Counted from the first letter of the stretch, positions 30,585-39,771 are shown. The stretch is DNA of 64,000 nucleotides from Candidatus Dormiibacterota bacterium (GCA_036844485.1 DAIUFS010000002.1:11085-75084), one strand, 5' to 3'. Notes: generated by a model from the letters alone, not told the origin. Numbers and translations: made by a program.

Positions 30585-31340
30585 ATGATCGACAGAGACA
30601 AGTACGCGGCGGCGGCCATCGTGTCGCGCCGCGACCTCGCCCCCGACCTCTGGGTGGTGCGGATCCGACCGGACTGCGAGCTGCCGTTCCGCCCCGGCCA
30701 GTACGTGACCCTGGGGCTGGAGCTGGACGGCCACATCGTCGAGCGGCCGTACTCGATCGCCTCCGATCCCGCTGAGGATGAGATCGAGCTCTTCATCGAG
30801 CGCGTCCCCGACGGGGAGCTGTCGGCTCCGCTCCACGACGTTCCCATCGGGGACACCACCCTGGTGCGCAAGCGGTGCAAGGGGCTGTTCCTCAAGGATG
30901 CCCCGGTGCTCGACCAGGCGCACGTGTTCGTGGCGACGGTCACGGGCATCGCGCCCTTCGTCAGCATCCTGCGCAGCCTGGCCCGGCGCCAGGCCAGCGG
31001 CGAGTGGGTCGCTGACCAGCCGGTGGTGGCCCTCCAGGGCGCCAGCCGCTCCGAAGAGCTCGGCTACGAGGAGGAGTTGCGCGCGCTGGACGACGCCTGC
31101 GACTGGTTCACGTACGTGCCCACCATCAGTCGCCCCTGGGACGATCCCGAGTGGTCGGGCGAGACCGGCCGCGTCGAGGATGTCCTGCGCAAGCACGCCG
31201 ACCTGGCTGGGCTGCGCCCCGGCCATGGTGCCATCTATCTGTGCGGGAATCCCGAGATGATCGGCAAGGCCCACGGCATCATGCGGCGCCGCGGGTTTGG
31301 CGACAAGGAGATCCGCGAAGAGCAGTACTGGCCGGACTGA
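30585..31340 (+). CDS. ferredoxin--NADP(+) reductase (Fpr-type FAD/NAD(P)-binding oxidoreductase)
   Basis: RPGQYVTLGL, RPYSIAS (FAD motif), TGIAPF, and LCGNPEMI near a C-terminal aromatic residue. Confidence 0.85.
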   Translation: MIDRDKYAAAAIVSRRDLAPDLWVVRIRPDCELPFRPGQYVTLGLELDGHIVERPYSIASDPAEDEIELFIERVPDGELSAPLHDVPIGDTTLVRKRCKGLFLKDAPVLDQAHVFVATVTGIAPFVSILRSLARRQASGEWVADQPVVALQGASRSEELGYEEELRALDDACDWFTYVPTISRPWDDPEWSGETGRVEDVLRKHADLAGLRPGHGAIYLCGNPEMIGKAHGIMRRRGFGDKEIREEQYWPD

Positions 31341-31366: not shown

Positions 31367-32074
31367 CTATTTGAACCCGTAGCGGCCCTCGTGGAAGTCG
31401 CCGGTCTCGACCCACTGGTCGATGACAAGGTCGACCACCGCGTCGTTGACCTCGGAGAGGCCGAGCGTGCGAGCGTTGCCCTCGACCGCTTCGAGCACCT
31501 GCCCGCGAACGAAGTCGGGGATGCGCTCGAAGCGGCTCCGCGCCGAGTCCGTCCACGGCAGCGCGTCGCGGTCACGCTCTTCGATGGCGTGCGACACCCG
31601 GCCCCAGAGCTCGTACTTGACCTCCATCTCGACCGGGGTGATGGTGGTGCCCAGCCCCAGCTTGCGAGCCGTCCATTCGACTCGCCATCGGGTCAGGTCA
31701 CGGCAGAACTCGGGCACCTCCGCCAACCTCGCCTCTGCCTCCGGCGTCCAGCTGAACACCACCTCGGTGCCGGTGCGGTCACTGAGTGGGTGGCCATAGC
31801 CGAGCTTCTTGCCGAGCGTCCGGACGAAGAGGTCGGTGATCTCTTCGACGCGATCGCGCTGGGCACGGGCTTCCACCACCCGTTCGGCCATGCCCGCGGC
31901 GCGCTCCGGGTCGATCCGGCTCACTGCCGCGCGATCGCGTCCCGTCTCAGCCGCGCGGTGGGCGTCCGCGGTCCAGGTGAGGGGCGGGTGGGCGGCGCCG
32001 ACGTGCACCGGACAGCCGGCCTGGTCGGCGTCGTGCACCACCGGGCAGCCAGGCTCGTCTCGCGTTTCGGACAT
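31367..32074 (-). CDS. PCP_red-domain protein (two protochlorophyllide-reductase-B C-terminal-like domains) with an N-terminal double GCPV motif
   Basis: FSWTPEAEARLAEVPEFCRDLTRW... and LPWTDSARSRFERIPDFVRGQVLEAVEGNARTLGL match the W-T-x-E-A...IP-x-F-V-R pattern. The N-terminus has GCPVVH and GCPVHV. Confidence 0.7.
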   Translation of the reverse strand: MSETRDEPGCPVVHDADQAGCPVHVGAAHPPLTWTADAHRAAETGRDRAAVSRIDPERAAGMAERVVEARAQRDRVEEITDLFVRTLGKKLGYGHPLSDRTGTEVVFSWTPEAEARLAEVPEFCRDLTRWRVEWTARKLGLGTTITPVEMEVKYELWGRVSHAIEERDRDALPWTDSARSRFERIPDFVRGQVLEAVEGNARTLGLSEVNDAVVDLVIDQWVETGDFHEGRYGFK

Positions 32075-32255
32075 CGGTCAACCCTCCCACGTGTCGCCGC
32101 GCTCGAGGTGATTCTACGCTGAGGTCGGCGGCGTCCCGACGCGGGCGCTCAGGCCCATGACCCCGCTCGCTATCATCGGACGACGCGGTTGCGAGTGGCG
32201 CTCCGGACCGGTCGCGCGCGGCGGTCGACGTTGCATCTGCCTGGCAGGGGAGCGG

Positions 32256-34325
32256 ATGTACTCCACCCTCTACGTCGCCCTCGACAACTCCGAGCACTCG
32301 GACGCCGCCAGCACGGTCGCCCTGGAGCTCGCCTCCGCCTTCGATGCCCGCGTCATCGGCATGCACGTGTACGCGGCGCGGATGCACGACTACCGGTTCA
32401 AGCAGATGGAGTACACGCTCCCCGAGGAGTACCAGGACGAGGCCGAGCTGCTCCGCCAGCGGCGCATCCACGACAGCCTGATCAGCACCGGCCTGGAGCT
32501 GATCAGCGACAGCTACACCGACGTGCTCCGCTACCGCTGTCTGGAGCGCGACGTGCGCTTCGAGGCGCGCATGCGCGACGGGCGCAACTGGGAGGAGCTG
32601 GTCGCCGACGTCGACGAGAGCAGCGACGTCGACCTGGTGATCATGGGCGCGCTCGGCACCGGCGCGGTCAAGGAGTCGCAGCTGGGCAGCGTCACCGACA
32701 GGGTGGCGCGACGCATCCGGCGCGATCTGCTCATCATCCGCAGCACCGGCGACGCCGCCATGGAGGGCGGCATCCTGGTGGCCGTCGACGGCTCACCGCA
32801 GTCGTTCGCCGGCCTGCGCACCGCCCTCGTCCTCGGCAAAGCGCTCGGCAAGCGCGTCGAGGCGGTGGCCGTCTACGACCCCTACCTGCACTACGCCGTC
32901 TTCAACGGCATCGTCGACGTGCTCTCGGAGAAGGCCTCGAAGATCTTCCGGTTCAAGGAGCAGGAGGCGCTCCACGAGGAGATCATCGACACCGGGCTCG
33001 CCAAGATCTACGAGTCCCACCTCCGCGTGGCCCGTGCCACCGCCGCCGAGGAGGGGGTCGACCTGCCCATCACCCTTCTCGACGGCAAGGCGTTCGAGAG
33101 GATCCTGCGCCACGCTCGCGAGACCCGCCCCTGGCTGCTGGTGCTCGGCCGCATCGGCGTCCACTCGGACGCCGCGATGGACATGGGCAGCAACACCGAG
33201 CAGCTGCTCCGGCTCGCTCCCTGCAACGTTCTGGTCAGCAGTGGCACGTTCACCCCACCCATCGACGTCCGCGCCGACGCCTCGGTGGTGTGGACACCGG
33301 AGGCCGAGGAGCGGATGGCAGCGGTGCCGGGCGGGGCGAGGGGCCTGGCACGGACCGCCGTGCTGCGCTGGGCGATGGAGCGAGGCCACAGCGTGGTCTC
33401 GTCCGGCGACGTGGCCACCGCGCTCGACGAGCTGATGCCGTTCGCACGCACCATGCGCCGCATCGCCGAGACCGCGGCCACCGTCGACTCCGCTCAGCGG
33501 GCCATGGTCGACGAGCCGCAGATCCAGGATGCACGCGCCGTCTGTCGCACCTGCGGGTACGCGGCGAGGAGCGACACCCCGCATCGCTGCCCGGTGTGCG
33601 ACAGCGACGCCGGGGCGTTCGAGCGCCTCGACAGCGACGCGCTCCGGGCCACGGCGGCCGGGGAGGGGGACGCGGCGCAGATCGCTTTTGACGGCGCCAA
33701 GCTGGGCTGGACAGTCGAGGCGCGCCGGCTGCTGCAGCAGCTCCCCGCCGGCTACCTGCGCCGCCGCGTCAAGGCGATCGTCGAGAAGCATGCGCGGACG
33801 CGGCGGCTGCCGGCGATCACCGCCGAGGTGGCCGAGCCGTTCGTGGCGCCCGAGCTCGACGCTCTCGACGTGAATGCCGGGCCGCATCGAGCCCCCTTGG
33901 GCGTCGAGGGGCACACCGGACCGCACGTCGACCAGCGCCGGCGCCTTCCCTGGACCGATGAGGCAGACGACCGCATCGAGCGCATTCCCGCGGGCTTCCT
34001 GCGCAACCTCGCCACCGAGCAGATCGAGCGCCTCGCCGTTGCCCTGGGCGCTCCGGAAGTGGGCGTGCTGCACGTCGAGGCCGGCATCGCTGAGGCGCGC
34101 GCCCGGATGCAGCGCGACGGTGTCGGGGCCGATCCCGCGGCGACCTGTCCCGTCGGGGCCGAGGGGGCGCAGGCTGCACCTGGGTGTCCGGTCCATCACC
34201 AGGCGGAGGGCACGGGGCGTTCCGGCGGTGCGGCGGCACCCCGAGGTGGCTCTCTCAACGAGATAACCGCCCCGGTCATCGACGACCTCGGCAGACGCAC
34301 GACCACGGCGCTGCCAGACGCCTGA
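32256..34325 (+). CDS. multidomain protein: 2 x universal stress protein domain + 3 x PCP_red-like domain + rubredoxin-like zinc ribbon + C-terminal double CPV motif
   Basis: USP motifs: LYVALDNSEHS...VIMGALGTG; ILVAVDGSPQS...LLVLGRIGVHS. PCP_red-like: VVWTPEAEERMAAVP, LGWTVEARRLLQQLPAGYLRRRV, LPWTDEADDRIERIPAGFLRN. Zinc ribbon: CRTCGY..x10..CPVCDS. Start set at the ATG at 32256. Confidence 0.75.
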   Translation: MYSTLYVALDNSEHSDAASTVALELASAFDARVIGMHVYAARMHDYRFKQMEYTLPEEYQDEAELLRQRRIHDSLISTGLELISDSYTDVLRYRCLERDVRFEARMRDGRNWEELVADVDESSDVDLVIMGALGTGAVKESQLGSVTDRVARRIRRDLLIIRSTGDAAMEGGILVAVDGSPQSFAGLRTALVLGKALGKRVEAVAVYDPYLHYAVFNGIVDVLSEKASKIFRFKEQEALHEEIIDTGLAKIYESHLRVARATAAEEGVDLPITLLDGKAFERILRHARETRPWLLVLGRIGVHSDAAMDMGSNTEQLLRLAPCNVLVSSGTFTPPIDVRADASVVWTPEAEERMAAVPGGARGLARTAVLRWAMERGHSVVSSGDVATALDELMPFARTMRRIAETAATVDSAQRAMVDEPQIQDARAVCRTCGYAARSDTPHRCPVCDSDAGAFERLDSDALRATAAGEGDAAQIAFDGAKLGWTVEARRLLQQLPAGYLRRRVKAIVEKHARTRRLPAITAEVAEPFVAPELDALDVNAGPHRAPLGVEGHTGPHVDQRRRLPWTDEADDRIERIPAGFLRNLATEQIERLAVALGAPEVGVLHVEAGIAEARARMQRDGVGADPAATCPVGAEGAQAAPGCPVHHQAEGTGRSGGAAAPRGGSLNEITAPVIDDLGRRTTTALPDA

Positions 34326-34326
34326 C

Positions 34327-35580
34327 ATGCTCGGCCTCCAGGTCACCACGCCCGATTTCCCCGGCATCGGCAACAACGCGTCGGTGGGAATCGTCTTCCT
34401 GGTCCACATTCTCATCGCCGAGTTCAGCCTCGGGGCCATCACTCTGGCGGTGGCGGCGGAGTGGCACCACGTGCGCACCGGCGACGAGCGCACCGCCCGA
34501 TACGCGCGCAGTCTGGCCAACACCTATTACCTGGTCTTCAGCCTGGGTGCCACCTTCGCGGTGTTCGCCGTCGTGCTGCTCACCGGCCTGTGGGCCAACG
34601 AGTTCGGACAGCTGGTCAACAAGTTCGTCTGGCTGGTGGCGTTCGCCTTCAGCCTGTTCTTCGTGCTGGTGCCGCTCCTGGTCTGGTATCGCAATACCTT
34701 CACATCCATGGCTCCGCGCCGTCACGTCCTCCTCGGGACGGCGGTGGGCGTTCTCCAGAGCATGTTCATGGTGCTCATCGTTGGCATCGACGCGTACCTC
34801 ATCAATCCCGTCAACGCCGGGCTCACGGAACCGGCGTTCAACCCGGTGTACTGGCCGCTGCTCATCCACCGTCTCATCGGCAACGTGAGCTGGACCGCGC
34901 TGTTCTGCGCGGCGTACGCGGCTGTCCGGCTGCGCGGAGGTCGCGGTGACGCCCCAGAGCGCGCGTTCCAATCCTGGGCGGCCCGGGTCAACCTGCGCAT
35001 CGGCCTGCTCACCGGCCTGCTCATGCCGATCGTGGGCTTTGCGCTCATCGAGGTGATCCGCCAGAGCGAGCCGGGCTACTTCGACAACCTTCTCAGCGGC
35101 GGGACCGCCGCGTTCATGGTGGCCCAGGAGTGCCTGGTGGGGGTCATGTTCATCGGCGGCAACATCGCCCTGGCCAGCGAGGACGGCGGCCCGCGCGAGT
35201 GGTCGATGGCCAGCCGGGCAGCGATCGCCGTGTCGGTCGCCGGGATGACGCTGGCCGCCCTTCCCAGCGCGGTGCTCGGTGGCGACCTCAACGTGCTGCG
35301 CTACTGGGGGCTGGGCGCCGCCACCGTGGTGACCGCCGCGCACACGCTCTCACGTCTGCGCGGCCGCCGCCGGCGCCAGGACGACTCGCTGCGCGTCACC
35401 GGCTCGGTGTCGCGGATCGGGCGCAACGCGGTGCTCGCCGTCGGCACCGTTGCGGTGGTCACGTCCCTGCTGATGGGCTACATCAAGGAGCACGCCCGCG
35501 GCGACTACGCGGTGTATGGCGAGCTGCGCCAGGTCGACGCTCATCAGCCCTATCAACCCCCGCAGAGCCTCTACCCGTGA
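34327..35580 (+). CDS. cytochrome bd subunit I (CydA)-like membrane protein, paralogue 1, short Q-loop
   Basis: LVHILIAEF (TM1 His), LIHRLIGNV (TM5 His) and C-terminal GYIKEHARGDYAVYGEL (compare the CydA E-GRQPW-x-V-x-G motif). 417 aa, about 9 TM segments. Confidence 0.7.
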   Translation: MLGLQVTTPDFPGIGNNASVGIVFLVHILIAEFSLGAITLAVAAEWHHVRTGDERTARYARSLANTYYLVFSLGATFAVFAVVLLTGLWANEFGQLVNKFVWLVAFAFSLFFVLVPLLVWYRNTFTSMAPRRHVLLGTAVGVLQSMFMVLIVGIDAYLINPVNAGLTEPAFNPVYWPLLIHRLIGNVSWTALFCAAYAAVRLRGGRGDAPERAFQSWAARVNLRIGLLTGLLMPIVGFALIEVIRQSEPGYFDNLLSGGTAAFMVAQECLVGVMFIGGNIALASEDGGPREWSMASRAAIAVSVAGMTLAALPSAVLGGDLNVLRYWGLGAATVVTAAHTLSRLRGRRRRQDDSLRVTGSVSRIGRNAVLAVGTVAVVTSLLMGYIKEHARGDYAVYGELRQVDAHQPYQPPQSLYP

Positions 35581-35834
35581 CCCCGCTGCTGGTCGTCCGA
35601 GCCGCGGAATTCCAGGGCGCCTTGTACTACTCGCTGCTGCTGTTCGTCATCCTCTTTCTCGTCCTGCTGGGCATCGGCTACGCCCTGGTCGGAGTTCGCG
35701 GGCTCTGGCGCAGCGGCGAACGAGGTCCGGCCACAGTTCTCGGCGGAGCCCTCACCGTCGCCTTTCTCGCTCTCGTCGGGATGTACGTCGTCGCCGTCGG
35801 CGGGCTGTTCGCGGCTCCCGGGCTCGGGACGTGA
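35577..35834 (+). CDS. small two/three-TM membrane protein (85 aa), unknown function
   Basis: GTGA overlaps on both ends. Hydrophobic stretches LYYSLLLFVILFLVLLGIGYALV and ALTVAFLALVGMYVVAVGGLF. Confidence 0.5.
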   Translation: MTPLLVVRAAEFQGALYYSLLLFVILFLVLLGIGYALVGVRGLWRSGERGPATVLGGALTVAFLALVGMYVVAVGGLFAAPGLGT

Positions 35835-36328
35835 AGCAGCTCACCCGTCGCGAGATGCTGATCCGGGGCACCGGACTGGGCATGGGGCTGGTCGGGGTGA
35901 TGCTCAGCGTTCCCGCGGTGGGCTTCCTGCTCAGCCCCCTCTTCACCAAGCAGAAGGTTGTGTGGGTGACGGTCGGACCGATCGACAACGTGCCGGTCAA
36001 TCAGCCGACCCCCCTGATCGCGGAGGTCCCGGTTGGAACCGGGTACCCGACGCCGCCCGTCAAGCGAATTGTGTACGTGGTCAAGACCCCGGACGGGCAG
36101 ACCCGCGCGCTCAGCAACATCTGCACGCACATGCAGTGCGACGTGCACTGGGACCCTGCCCTGGGCAATTTTCTCTGCCCGTGCCACGGAGGCCTGTACG
36201 ACATCGAGGGCAGGAACGTTGGTGGGCCTCCCCCGCAACCACTTCCGCAGTGGGTGCACCGAATCCACACCGACGCCGAGGGCCGCACCATCCTCGAGAT
36301 CGAGAACAAGCTCGACGAGTCGATCTGA
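35831..36328 (+). CDS. Rieske [2Fe-2S] subunit with Tat signal
   Basis: Twin-arginine motif TRREMLIRG followed by a TM segment. Cluster ligands CTHMQC and CPCHGG. Confidence 0.88.
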   Translation: MKQLTRREMLIRGTGLGMGLVGVMLSVPAVGFLLSPLFTKQKVVWVTVGPIDNVPVNQPTPLIAEVPVGTGYPTPPVKRIVYVVKTPDGQTRALSNICTHMQCDVHWDPALGNFLCPCHGGLYDIEGRNVGGPPPQPLPQWVHRIHTDAEGRTILEIENKLDESI

Positions 36329-36339
36329 ATGCACCGCTC

Positions 36340-37536
36340 ATGATTGTCAGCCGCTGGCTCACACGACCACTGAAGGCGCGACTGCGCGCGGGGATGGAGT
36401 GGTTCGACGACCGCACCGGAGCCACCGAGCTTCTCCACAAGGGGCTCTATGAGGCAGTCCCCAAGAAGGGTGGCTGGGCGTATGCGCTGGGCAGCGCCAC
36501 CCTGGCGCTGATCCTGCTCCAGCTCTTCAGCGGGATCTTCCTGCTGCTCGACTACGTGCCCTCGGTCACCGACGCCTTCAACAGCCTGGATTACCTGCGC
36601 AGTGGCGACGCCTTCGGCGCCTGGGTGCGCGGGCTCCACCTCTGGGGCTCGTACATGCTCATCTTCGTGATCGGGCTGCACATGCTGCGCACCTTCCTCT
36701 CGGCGAGCTACAAGCGGCCGCGTGAGCTCAACTGGGTGACGGGAGCGCTCCTCTTCTTCCTGGTGCTTGGGCTGGCCATCACCGGCGCGATGCTGCCCTG
36801 GGACGAGGCGGCGTACTGGACGACCACGGTGGTGACCAACATCCCCCACTACCTCCCGGTGATCGGGGACGGCATCCGGACGCTCTGGCGCGGGGGGGAC
36901 TTCGTCGGACCGATCACCCTGACGCGCACCTTCGCCATCCATGTCTGGGTGCTGCCCTTCCTGCTGTTCACCCTCATCGGCGGTCACCTCTACCTTCTCC
37001 GTCGCCACGGCGAGTTCGGTGCCTGGGTCAACTACGACAGCGCTCCCGGCGAGGAAGGGGAGAGGCAGATCGCCGAGCGGATTCGCCGCGCCGAGCCCCC
37101 CTACCCGACCAAGCGGATCTCACGCCGCTACGCGGCGCCGAGCGAGACGGTGCCGTTCTTTCCCGACCAGATCTTCAAGGACGTGGTGTTGAGCACCGCC
37201 CTGGTCGCGGTCATCTTCGTCATGGGACTGATCTCCGGAGCGCCGCTCGACCAGGCCGCCAATCCGGCGACGTTCAGCTACGTGCCCACGCCGGAGTGGT
37301 TCTTCCTCCCCCTCGACCAGTTCATGGTCGTGGCACCGGCCAACCCGCTCATCGCCATTGGGGTCTTCGGCGTTCTCGGCCTGGGCGCAGCCCTGATGGT
37401 GCTCCTGCCGTTCATCGATCGCTCCCCGGAGCGCCGTCCACTGCGCCGCCCTGAGGTGATCGTGCCCGCCCTCTTCATGGCCTTCACGGTGATCTTCTTC
37501 GCTGTTCTCGGCATCAACCGGCTGTACAACCTGTGA
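36340..37536 (+). CDS. cytochrome b (fused b6 + subunit-IV-like) of a Rieske/cyt b complex
   Basis: Two bis-His pairs (HLWGSYMLIFVIGLH; HVWVLPFLLFTLIGGH) and a Qo-site PEWF (PEWY-type) motif. Confidence 0.9.
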   Translation: MIVSRWLTRPLKARLRAGMEWFDDRTGATELLHKGLYEAVPKKGGWAYALGSATLALILLQLFSGIFLLLDYVPSVTDAFNSLDYLRSGDAFGAWVRGLHLWGSYMLIFVIGLHMLRTFLSASYKRPRELNWVTGALLFFLVLGLAITGAMLPWDEAAYWTTTVVTNIPHYLPVIGDGIRTLWRGGDFVGPITLTRTFAIHVWVLPFLLFTLIGGHLYLLRRHGEFGAWVNYDSAPGEEGERQIAERIRRAEPPYPTKRISRRYAAPSETVPFFPDQIFKDVVLSTALVAVIFVMGLISGAPLDQAANPATFSYVPTPEWFFLPLDQFMVVAPANPLIAIGVFGVLGLGAALMVLLPFIDRSPERRPLRRPEVIVPALFMAFTVIFFAVLGINRLYNL

Positions 37537-38978
37537 GCCCGCGCATCCTTCTCTCATCCCTGTCGCCGGTGAGCGGCAACATCGTCACCAACGGCGTCCT
37601 GGTCGCCGTGGTGGCGCTTCTGCACATCCAGATCGCCGCCTTTCTCACCGGATCATCGACGCTGGCGCTGGTCTCCGAAGCGGTTTCGATGGCCCGCGGC
37701 GACGAGCGCCACGGCCGCGTCGCCCACATGCTGGTGAAGGGGCAGGTCTACGTCTTCAGCTTCGGCTCGGCGGTGGCCATCTTCTTCATGATCTTCGTGC
37801 TCCTCGGCCTGTGGGGCATCTTCTGGACCGCCTTGCAGCAGATCGCCTTCTGGGTGCTGGTCTTCGAGGCGGCCATGTTTCTCACCGAGATCGTGCTGCT
37901 GTACAGCCTGTACGCCAACTGGGATCGGCTGCAGGCGCATCGCCGTGCCCGCCTCGCCATGCTGCTCCTGCTCAACATCTCGCTGTGGTGGCAGATGTTC
38001 CTCATCGACGTGGTGGCGTCCTTCATGCTCACGCCCAACGGCGGCGACGTCAGCATCCTCAATCAGATCCTCAACCCCACCAACCTGCCGCTGACCATCC
38101 ATCGCACCATCGGCAACGTCGCCTGGGCGGGCGCGGTGGTCGCCTTCATCGGTGGCTTCAACTACCTGCGTCTCACCAGGCGGCAGCGTGAGCCCACACC
38201 CGACGCTCCGCAGTCGATGCGACCGCTGCGGTCGATCGGCGCCATGGCCGCCGGCCACCTGGAATGGGAGGCACAGCGCACGGAGATTCTCCACTGGGAG
38301 TGGGTGGCGCACTGGGGAGTGATCTGGGCGGTGGCGATGACACTGCTCCAACCATGGGTCGGCTACTCCTACGCCAAGGAGGTCCAGCTCCACGCCTACG
38401 GAGCCTGGTACACGATGATGTTCGGCGACCTCTCCAACGTGTTTCTGCTGCAGATCTTCCTGCTCGGCTCGATCTTCACACTCGGAGCGCTGTACTTCTG
38501 GCGTCGCATGGTGCGCTCCGGTGCCGCGCATGCCCGCCGTCAGCTGATCCTGGCGGTGGCCCTCATCCTCATGACCGTGCTGGCGGTGCAGCCGGCGTGG
38601 TTCGCTCCGACCTACGCGGATGCCATCGCCGCCGCGGGTAACCGGGCATGGTGGGATGGGGGCCTGCTCAACCCCATCGGCGACTTCATCCCCTTCAAGG
38701 CGGCGGCCCTGATCGGCATGGTGCTGTTCGGCCTCTGGTCGGTGACCAGCTATCTGGCGGCGGTGTCGCGCGGCCGGGTCAAGCCCGGCGGCAGCGGCCG
38801 GGGTGCGCAGCGAGCCGCGCTGGTGATCGGCGTGGCGGTGAGCATGATGATGCTGGTCATGGGCGTGATCCGTGAGCATTCACGCCAGCCCTACCTTGTT
38901 TACGGCGAGATCACGCTGCACCAGCAGATCACCAACCACGCGCCGTCGCCGACCTCTCTCCAACAGAGCCAACCGTGA
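37533..38978 (+). CDS. cytochrome bd subunit I (CydA)-like membrane protein, paralogue 2
   Basis: LLHIQIAAF, VFEAAMFLTE, TIHRTIGNV and C-terminal GVIREHSRQPYLVYGEI. Aligns without gaps to paralogue 1 over TM1-TM5. Confidence 0.7.
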   Translation: MSPRILLSSLSPVSGNIVTNGVLVAVVALLHIQIAAFLTGSSTLALVSEAVSMARGDERHGRVAHMLVKGQVYVFSFGSAVAIFFMIFVLLGLWGIFWTALQQIAFWVLVFEAAMFLTEIVLLYSLYANWDRLQAHRRARLAMLLLLNISLWWQMFLIDVVASFMLTPNGGDVSILNQILNPTNLPLTIHRTIGNVAWAGAVVAFIGGFNYLRLTRRQREPTPDAPQSMRPLRSIGAMAAGHLEWEAQRTEILHWEWVAHWGVIWAVAMTLLQPWVGYSYAKEVQLHAYGAWYTMMFGDLSNVFLLQIFLLGSIFTLGALYFWRRMVRSGAAHARRQLILAVALILMTVLAVQPAWFAPTYADAIAAAGNRAWWDGGLLNPIGDFIPFKAAALIGMVLFGLWSVTSYLAAVSRGRVKPGGSGRGAQRAALVIGVAVSMMMLVMGVIREHSRQPYLVYGEITLHQQITNHAPSPTSLQQSQP

Positions 38979-39403
38979 GGATCCCGCTGGGCGCAGTCGC
39001 GCTACGCATTCCCATCTTCCTCTCCGCGCATGAGGAGTTGCGCACAGCCATCGAGCCGCCCTGGCCGCGATGGATGCGTGACCTCTACCAGCTCGAGCAG
39101 GCGCAGGACGAGGGCATCGACGTCGACGCCGAGGAGACCACCGTTCCGGCAGCGCTCGGCGCGCTGTCGTCACGGCTGCGCCAGCGGCTGGAGCTGATCT
39201 CCTCGGTTGCCAGTGGACTGCGGCGCGACGGATGGGCTCTTGACATCGACGGCGACTGTCTGGTGGCCAGCAGGGTGAGCAACCCGCGGCACGCGCTGGA
39301 GATGCTCGAGGACGCGGGACTGGCGGGACCGCTGTGCGCCGTAGCCGACCTCGACGAGTCCGGGTGGCCGCGGCTGTACATCGGTCTGGCGAGCACGGCA
39401 TGA
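38975..39403 (+). CDS. hypothetical protein (142 aa)
   Basis: GTGA overlap upstream and ATGA overlap downstream. No family recognised. Confidence 0.5.
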   Translation: MRIPLGAVALRIPIFLSAHEELRTAIEPPWPRWMRDLYQLEQAQDEGIDVDAEETTVPAALGALSSRLRQRLELISSVASGLRRDGWALDIDGDCLVASRVSNPRHALEMLEDAGLAGPLCAVADLDESGWPRLYIGLASTA

Positions 39404-39771
39404 GCGCCACTGTCCTCATTGCCGAGGACGAACCGATGATCGGGCGGATCCTCGCCGAGAAGCTGACCCGCGAGGGCTATAAGGTGTTGCGGACCGCCAC
39501 CATCGAGGGCTTGATGTCCGCGCTGGCAATCTCTGACGTCGCGCTCGTCGATGCCACTCTCGACGGCGACGGCATCGACGCCATGCAGGGTCTCGCGGCC
39601 GCGGCGATCCATCCCCGCGCCGGCTGGTTCGCCATGGTGGAGAGCCGCGCCGCCGACCAGGGCATCCGTGCGGTTCGCGCCGGCGCCGCGGGGGTGATCA
39701 TCAAGCCGTTCAAGCCGACGGCGGTGGCGGCCAAGGTGGCCACCCTGCTCGCCACGGTGGCGGTGCCGTGA
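39400..39771 (+). CDS. stand-alone response-regulator receiver domain
   Basis: VLIAEDEP (acidic pair), ALVDATLDGDG (acceptor Asp context), VIIKPF (conserved Lys). Confidence 0.8.
   Translation: MSATVLIAEDEPMIGRILAEKLTREGYKVLRTATIEGLMSALAISDVALVDATLDGDGIDAMQGLAAAAIHPRAGWFAMVESRAADQGIRAVRAGAAGVIIKPFKPTAVAAKVATLLATVAVP

Follow-up and report, generated by a model that had tools for sequence, protein, structure and literature searches.

Gene organisation of the locus

We analysed a 64,000-nucleotide stretch of DNA from Candidatus Dormiibacterota bacterium (GCA_036844485.1, DAIUFS010000002.1:11085-75084; hereafter the window, with positions counted from its first letter), concentrating on two genes that encode CydA-like proteins, here called paralogue 1 and paralogue 2. 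A reading made from the sequence alone (the sequence-only reading) had proposed that only paralogue 2 keeps a pair of glutamates in its third transmembrane helix (TM3). As set out below, the two proteins very probably represent the 'b' and 'a' subunits, respectively, of an OR-N5-type cytochrome bd-like oxygen reductase.

Both genes lie in a tightly packed plus-strand gene string that runs from 32157 to 39771 (Table 1), in a region (32-40 kb of the window) with a G+C content of 66-71%; in DNA of such composition (70% GC), scanning for promoters and terminators yielded no useful information. Since the sequence reads as a GTGA start/stop overlap at four junctions of the string, translational coupling of the genes is indicated. 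Between the two paralogues lie a small open reading frame (ORF), a Rieske protein with a twin-arginine N-terminus and a CTH...CPCH motif, and a cytochrome b in which b6-like and subunit-IV-like parts are fused. The latter matches PF00033 (E=6.6e-42), PF13631 and PF00032, as well as the NCBIfam cytochrome b6 model (E=1.4e-60), and its sequence shows a PEWF motif and four haem-ligand histidines; inspection of the same sequence revealed no CxxCH motif. The 85-aa ORF is linked to its neighbours by GTGA on both sides, its GTG start overlapping the stop of paralogue 1 and its stop overlapping the GTG start of the Rieske gene. It had no Pfam match, and tblastn placed it at the corresponding site of no fewer than 53 related loci; the complex may thus possess a small subunit of the CydX/CydS kind.

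Table 1 Features of the gene string and its surroundings, with the codons of key residues.
Feature	Position	Strand	Evidence or remark
FNR-like reductase	30585-31340	+	
235-aa PCP_red protein	31367-32074	-	divergent from the 722-aa protein gene
722-aa protein: 2 Usp domains, rubredoxin-like Zn ribbon, 3 PCP_red domains	32157-34325	+	Pfam
Paralogue 1, OR-N5b-type CydA-like subunit, 417 aa, ~10 helices	34327-35580	+	PF01654, AlphaFold 2 model
Paralogue 1 H27	34405-34407	+	H19 equivalent
Paralogue 1 TM3, A107 to L114	34645-34668	+	hhalign; faces the paralogue 2 Glu pair
Paralogue 1 H133	34723-34725	+	H126 equivalent
Paralogue 1 H181	34867-34869	+	H186 equivalent
Paralogue 1 E388	35488-35490	+	E445 equivalent
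Small two-TM ORF, 85 aa	35577-35834	+	read from sequence, tblastn
Rieske [2Fe-2S] protein, petA-like	35831-36328	+	PF00355 E=6.6e-11; NCBIfam b6f/bc1 Rieske models
Cytochrome b, b6-like and subunit-IV-like parts fused (petB/petD)	36340-37536	+	Pfam, NCBIfam
Paralogue 2, OR-N5a-type CydA-like subunit, 481 aa, ~10 helices, no Q-loop	37533-38978	+	AlphaFold 2 model, hhalign
Paralogue 2 H31	37623-37625	+	H19 equivalent
Paralogue 2 TM3 Glu pair, E112 to E119 (i, i+7), then W130-D131-R132 anchor	37866-37889	+	
Paralogue 2 Q154	37992-37994	+	at S140 position
Paralogue 2 H190	38100-38102	+	H186 equivalent
Paralogue 2 Arg-rich loop insertion, ~32-35 aa, TM5-TM6, residues ~216-250	38178-38282	+	gap in paralogue 1
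Paralogue 2 ILHWEWVAHWGVIW, His/Trp-rich, N-terminal part of TM6	38286-38327	+	
Paralogue 2 motif residues 282-287	38376-38393	+	
Paralogue 2 H287	38391-38393	+	
Paralogue 2 E448	38874-38876	+	E445 equivalent
142-aa ORF (orf142)	38975-39403	+	no family match; overlaps paralogue 2 stop (GTGA)
Stand-alone receiver-domain protein	39334-39771	+	downstream of orf142

Fold, residue mapping and conservation of the two paralogues

The two proteins are related to one another (BLASTP, 26% identity, E=1e-22; hhalign, probability 99.9%, E=1e-35). Their AlphaFold 2 (AF2) models, with predicted local distance difference test (pLDDT) scores of 84 for paralogue 1 and 76 for paralogue 2, each contain ten long helices, and for each of them all of the top 10 Foldseek matches in the PDB are CydA. 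Both paralogues are thus shown, at the level of predicted structure, to have the CydA fold. Helix numbers were taken from the models, the Kyte-Doolittle count of transmembrane segments being ambiguous and too noisy for use. Because the connection between TM6 and TM7 is shorter than 15 residues in both models, neither paralogue has a Q-loop.

Searches of the PDB with the paralogue 2 sequence and with a HMMER profile reached no CydA, the likeness in sequence being too low for HMMER, and those with paralogue 1 gave only marginal matches to 5DOQ. Residues were for this reason mapped by hhalign against residues 11-212 of Geobacillus CydA, the sequence of which was taken from the 5DOQ PDB alignments. 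The Geobacillus protein aligned with the paralogue 2 family (probability 91%, E=9e-7) so as to place H31 on H21, E112 on E101 and E119 on E108 with no gaps. The same register is marked by an E-x10-W-D-R anchor that is common to paralogue 2 (E119...W130DR), Geobacillus (E108...W119DR) and E. coli CydA (E107...W118DR). Alignment with the single E. coli sequence, verified against 6RKO, had probabilities of just 1.4% and 0.8% and served as a consistency check only; in this low-confidence alignment exactly one gap falls between the glutamates, and H190 is paired with H186.

These alignments bear directly on what had been proposed for TM3. The two 35-residue stretches quoted in the sequence-only reading are present, as residues 87-121 of paralogue 1 (34585-34689) and 92-126 of paralogue 2 (37806-37910), and the FEAAMFLTE string (37863-37889) carries E112 and E119. 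The ungapped register in which Ala and Leu of paralogue 1 face the Glu pair was reproduced by hhalign, with A107 opposite E112 and L114 opposite E119. Likewise, the proposal that the pair occupies the canonical proton-channel and haem-pocket positions is borne out by the match to Geobacillus E101/E108, as far as sequence alignment can place them. The remark that the spacing differs by one residue from that of canonical CydA was correct for E. coli-type qOR1 enzymes only: six residues between the glutamates are the norm for qOR2, qOR3, qOR4a, OR-C and OR-N enzymes, while the seven of qOR1 reflect an insertion (Murali 2021, 10.1101/2021.01.16.426971). The offset is therefore explained by this qOR1-specific insertion, and is no peculiarity of paralogue 2.

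To follow these positions through the family we gathered about 113 orthologues of each paralogue, together with 79 genomic loci from a contig scan (80 best loci), all of them from Dormibacterota, Chloroflexota and similar groups; residue counts for paralogue 2 refer to 77 other loci (39-93% identity) and those for paralogue 1 to 71 aligned sequences. Against a mean column identity of 57% among paralogue 2 orthologues, E112 was found in 77/77 and E119 in 76/77 (Gln in L079), in keeping with the conservation that the sequence-only reading had asked for. The distances from Glu to Glu (7) and from Glu to Gln (35) are the same in every paralogue 2 locus. At position 107 of paralogue 1, 64 of the 71 sequences have Ala and four have Glu, the latter most likely being tblastn cross-hits to paralogue 2 on contigs without paralogue 1. 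Because it is conserved across orthologues down to 39% identity, the asymmetry between Glu/Glu and Ala/Leu is real, ancient and under selection.

The remaining key positions of paralogue 2 are also invariant or nearly so: H31, H190 and E448, the equivalents of H19, H186 and E445 (the last within an equivalent of E445-GRQP), and Q154, at the position of S140. The position of H126 is occupied by RRAR (R137-R138-A139-R140), with Geobacillus H128 aligned to A139, and the adjacent H136 is not conserved (His in 31 orthologues, Tyr in 26, Val in 17). The sequence of paralogue 2 has no Cys, and hence no CxxCH.

In paralogue 1, the residues at the H19 (H27), H126 (H133, aligned to Geobacillus H128) and H186 (H181) positions are all invariant, as is Q144 at the S140 position, and E388, the equivalent of E445, is kept in 68/71 orthologues. 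The protein has lost the WDR motif besides the Glu pair, and its two Cys residues are non-adjacent and form no CxxCH. Paralogue 1 evolves only slightly faster than paralogue 2 (median identity among orthologues 51% vs 54%). Since its other key residues are kept and the two rates are similar, the loss is site-specific and partly complementary. The comparison with the catalytic and degenerate subunits of CydAA' made in the sequence-only reading thus agrees with the a/b naming used in the field, but the word degenerate fits poorly with a protein that retains equivalents of H19, H186, H126 and E445.

Three further segments of paralogue 2 stand out around TM6. The Arg-rich loop insertion, by inference cytoplasmic, has a pLDDT of 53-56 and occurs in 52 of 78 aligned paralogue 2 sequences, being confined to the main Dormibacterota/Chloroflexota clade and missing from a divergent clade. 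The segment ILHWEWVAHWGVIW, which had been described as an extra His/Trp-rich element, is indeed present; it is not extra, as BLASTP and hhalign align it to residues ~212-225 of paralogue 1, and its histidines are not conserved. H254 is replaced among orthologues (Tyr in 49, His in 18, Phe in 10), as is H260 (Gln in 52, His in 19), while W257, W261, G262 and W265 are conserved. That the segment had brought in a metal or haem site was considered and rejected, its histidines being lineage-specific. The most conserved stretch of the whole family is YSYAKE(I/V)QLH, at the outer end of TM6, in which K282, Q285 and H287 are invariant; paralogue 1 has neither this motif nor a counterpart of H287. The spacing of K282...H287 is that of K252...E257 in the E. 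coli quinol site, a likeness of spacing only, as the E. coli alignment stops short of the Q-loop. Judging from sequence, H287 is a candidate that might provide the second axial ligand in place of Met393, or might serve in docking.

Operon distribution and the published OR-N5 family

The order paralogue 1, small ORF, Rieske protein, cytochrome b and paralogue 2 was found in 65/65 loci that reach far enough upstream, and these span Dormibacterota, Chloroflexota and the divergent clade at about 40% identity. Placement of the Rieske and cytochrome b genes between the paralogues, which the sequence-only reading had treated as an exception, is therefore the rule: it is the typical arrangement of OR-N5a/b operons. 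Murali, Gennis & Hemp (2021, 10.1101/2021.01.16.426971) describe OR-N5a/b as encoded in an operon with petA, petB and petD, with about 10 helices and no quinol site. They also report that 'a' subfamilies retain E99/E107 and 'b' subfamilies do not, that His19 is present in all duplicated paralogues, that cydA' could carry an additional haem, and that proton-channel residues vary among OR-N subfamilies. As OR-N subfamilies differ in these residues, a His at the H126 position is variable and not defining. The same study scores Dormibacterota as OR-N-positive (Table S3), and a later source uses the name "CydAA' of the OR-N5 type", stating that its O2 affinity is unknown (PMC12342949).

Comparison with the published references is close. 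The study gives H24/E104/E111/Q146/H183/E406 for OR-N5a and H34/A115/T122/H202 for OR-N5b (Table S6), with Rubrobacter xylanophilus WP_143528031.1/WP_143528035.1 as OR-N5 references, and lists TMC47996.1 and TMC48000.1 as a cydA/cydA' pair (Suppl. Table 6; 10.1101/2021.01.16.426971). Paralogue 2 shares with the Rubrobacter OR-N5a reference the Gln at the S140 position and spacings identical to those of E104/E111/Q146, and paralogue 1 shares with OR-N5b an Ala at the first Glu position (A107, A115) and the equivalents of H19 and H186. Like OR-N5a/b, the pair in the window has about 10 helices per subunit, no Q-loop, and petA/petB/petD-like genes between the copies. The paralogue 1 orthologue of one locus (L045) is exactly TMC47996.1, and identity to this TMC locus is 51% for paralogue 1 and 59% for paralogue 2, with identical synteny. 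Among the features that distinguish the window pair from the references are the ~32-aa TM5-TM6 loop, extra in this clade's paralogue 2, and, in OR-N5b, a Ser at the E445 position and a Trp at the S140 position where paralogue 1 has Glu and Gln.

OR-N5 a/b accessions differ by 4 in the published pairs (10.1101/2021.01.16.426971), as do those of the pair from the metagenome-assembled genome (MAG) to which the window belongs. Paralogue 1 (PF01654, Cyt_bd_oxida_I, E=1.6e-10) matches HEY8756563.1 with 100% identity, an entry that GenBank names 'cytochrome ubiquinol oxidase subunit I', and the 90%-identity cluster of the best match of paralogue 2 contains HEY8756567.1, a 'hypothetical protein'; both accessions come from one 95-kb contig in a MAG of Candidatus Dormibacteraeota. 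Cyt_bd_oxida_I gave no match to paralogue 2 at E<=0.1, while PF01654 matches many of its orthologues. Automatic annotation thus under-calls OR-N5a, leaving the catalytic-type paralogue 2 'hypothetical' and naming the Glu-less paralogue 1 an oxidase subunit.

In a HMMER scan of 1.84 billion representatives the family comprised only 453 clusters (50% identity) at E<=1e-3, a number that fell to 41 at E<=1e-30. Three signatures were seen among the cluster representatives, in agreement with the published subfamily table: 'H-EE-W...H' for the a-type, 'H-A/I/L-x' for the b-type, and 'H-YE-W...H', in proteins of 550-890 aa, for an OR-N2-like type. OR-N1 and OR-N2 of Nitrospirota belong to the same OR-N family, have no quinol site and conserve H19, and OR-N1 is found in petA/petB/petD operons; unlike the window pair they have 14 helices and 550-890 aa, with Y/E or Y/G at the Glu positions.

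The archaeal CydAA' of Caldivirga maquilingensis (qOR4a/qOR4b), in which two CydA paralogues form a heterodimer, offers a parallel from an independent duplication. Its A subunit keeps E109/E116, with the same spacing, and the haem ligands, as paralogue 2 does, whereas A' no longer has the two glutamates but retains His19, as in paralogue 1. This enzyme is reported to contain haems of the b type only and to reduce O2. Unlike the window pair, it has a quinol site on its CydA, which oxidises quinol directly, 8 helices and adjacent genes, with no Rieske or cytochrome b. Canonical CydAB (E. coli 6RKO; G. thermodenitrificans 5DOQ) shares its fold with both window paralogues, and paralogue 2 has equivalents of its H19, E99/E107 (E101/E108), WDR, H186 and E445-GRQP. 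The canonical enzyme differs in possessing a Q-loop, a Met393-type ligand and CydB; in the window the partner is a CydA paralogue, no ligand of the Met393 type is identifiable, and quinol presumably binds at the Rieske/cytochrome b module.

The genes flanking the operon are also conserved in part. The 722-aa Usp/PCP_red protein, which may regulate the operon in response to redox state or stress, ends 1 nt upstream of paralogue 1. In the majority of main-clade loci it occurs in synteny with the divergently transcribed 235-aa PCP_red gene, joined in the closest relatives by an FNR-like reductase; most loci of the divergent clade (L058-L078) lack it. Downstream of paralogue 2, orf142 and the receiver protein are kept in the main clade (36-88% identity). 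A typical Dormibacterota-type operon was also seen in MAGs labelled 'Candidatus Micrarchaeaceae/Micrarchaeia archaeon' and 'Acidiferrales' (L068, L071 and L074), which are probably mis-binned contigs or mislabelled bins.

Interpretation and alternatives

We put at roughly 85% the probability that paralogue 2 ('a') and paralogue 1 ('b') form an OR-N5-type cytochrome bd-like oxygen reductase of the CydAA' kind, their genes being co-transcribed, in a closely coupled operon, with those for a small two-TM protein, a Rieske protein and a fused b6/subunit IV. Several points weigh against this assignment. It is based on the TMC pair, the surrounding genes of the operon, the number of helices and the signature residues, and not on a phylogenetic tree, and the TMC pair carries no explicit N5 label in the table, the label coming from the text 'Chloroflexi (N5a/b)' (10.1101/2021.01.16.426971). 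Paralogue 2 has RRAR where OR-N5a lists H132, and paralogue 1 has an invariant H133 and Q144 where OR-N5b lists N137 and W151. The Foldseek TM-scores are moderate (0.35-0.63), residues having been mapped by sequence profile. Finally, no OR-N enzyme has been purified or characterised, leaving O2 reduction, haem content and subunit contacts unproven (10.1101/2021.01.16.426971; PMC12342949).

If the assignment holds, the two paralogues would form a heterodimer like CydA/CydB or CydA/CydA', with paralogue 1 in the role of CydB or CydA'. Quinol would be oxidised at the Qo site of the Rieske/cytochrome b module and not on CydA. Since no c-type haem is encoded, it is probably the Rieske cluster that reduces a b-type haem on paralogue 2 (H190), from which electrons would continue to a di-haem O2 site (H31, E448). 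Protons would reach the O2 site by a path through E112, E119 and Q154, the Glu channel being predicted in paralogue 2 only.

How far paralogue 1 takes part in the chemistry is less clear-cut. At somewhat below even odds, both paralogues would be functional, cofactor-binding subunits, paralogue 1 carrying one or more haems on H27/H181/E388 for electron transfer or a second reaction, in a division of labour in which it is no scaffold. The invariance of H27, H133 and H181 and the retention of E388 in 68/71 sequences speak for such a role, and so do the position of H133, facing Geobacillus H128 where paralogue 2 has Arg, the better fit of Cyt_bd_oxida_I to paralogue 1 than to paralogue 2, its nearly equal rate of evolution, and the published presence of His19 in all duplicated paralogues with the suggestion that cydA' might take an extra haem (10.1101/2021.01.16.426971). 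Against it, paralogue 1 is without the Glu pair and the WDR motif needed for protons at an O2-reducing site, and canonical CydB demonstrates that a partner subunit can be haem-free. More tentative still, and in our view rather unlikely, is the proposal that the operon encodes a single obligate 'bc-bd' supercomplex, free of cytochrome c and copper, that acts as a Q-cycle-coupled quinol oxidase. Here the Rieske protein would reduce a low-spin haem on paralogue 2 with H190 and H287 as ligands, H287 replacing Met393, while paralogue 1 would keep its own haem or haems on H27/H181 and the conserved 85-aa two-TM protein would be a CydX-like assembly subunit.

We consider it improbable that the complex is not an oxygen reductase at all, and is instead a haem-containing membrane module for another acceptor (NO, H2O2 or a periplasmic oxidant) or an electron exit for the Rieske/cytochrome b. 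Such a role would be consistent with the lack of a measured activity for any OR-N enzyme and the stated uncertainty over O2 affinity (PMC12342949), the rarity of the family (453 clusters among 1.84 billion) and the conserved stress and regulatory genes that flank the operon (USP-PCP_red, orf142 and the receiver protein). Yet paralogue 2 strictly conserves the full active-site set (equivalents of H19, E445 and E99/E107) that defines O2-reducing cytochrome bd, and the all-haem-b archaeal CydAA' is reported to reduce O2. That the TM3 asymmetry reflects chance drift of two helices with no function is barely credible and is refuted by conservation: beyond the low overall identity of the paralogues (26%) nothing favours it, and it is contradicted by the near-invariance of E112/E119 relative to the average column, by the conserved Ala107 of paralogue 1, by the fall of the pair on Geobacillus E101/E108 in an alignment anchored by the common H21 and WDR, and by the recurrence of the same a/b dichotomy in independent duplications across the superfamily.

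The asymmetry, the Glu spacing and the Rieske/cytochrome b context were all published in 2021, so that the finding is real but not new, and the sequence-only reading arrived, three corrections apart, at what is in essence the published interpretation. The pair in the window is a well-resolved and highly conserved case of an enzyme class that awaits biochemical characterisation. If electrons do pass from the Rieske/cytochrome b module to a bd-like subunit, the Q cycle would be coupled to the reduction of O2 independently of cytochrome c, which would bear on how Dormibacterota and other oligotrophic bacteria of soils conserve energy. Were a 'bc-bd' supercomplex to be formed, it would give soil Dormibacterota and Chloroflexota a higher H+/e- ratio than canonical cytochrome bd.

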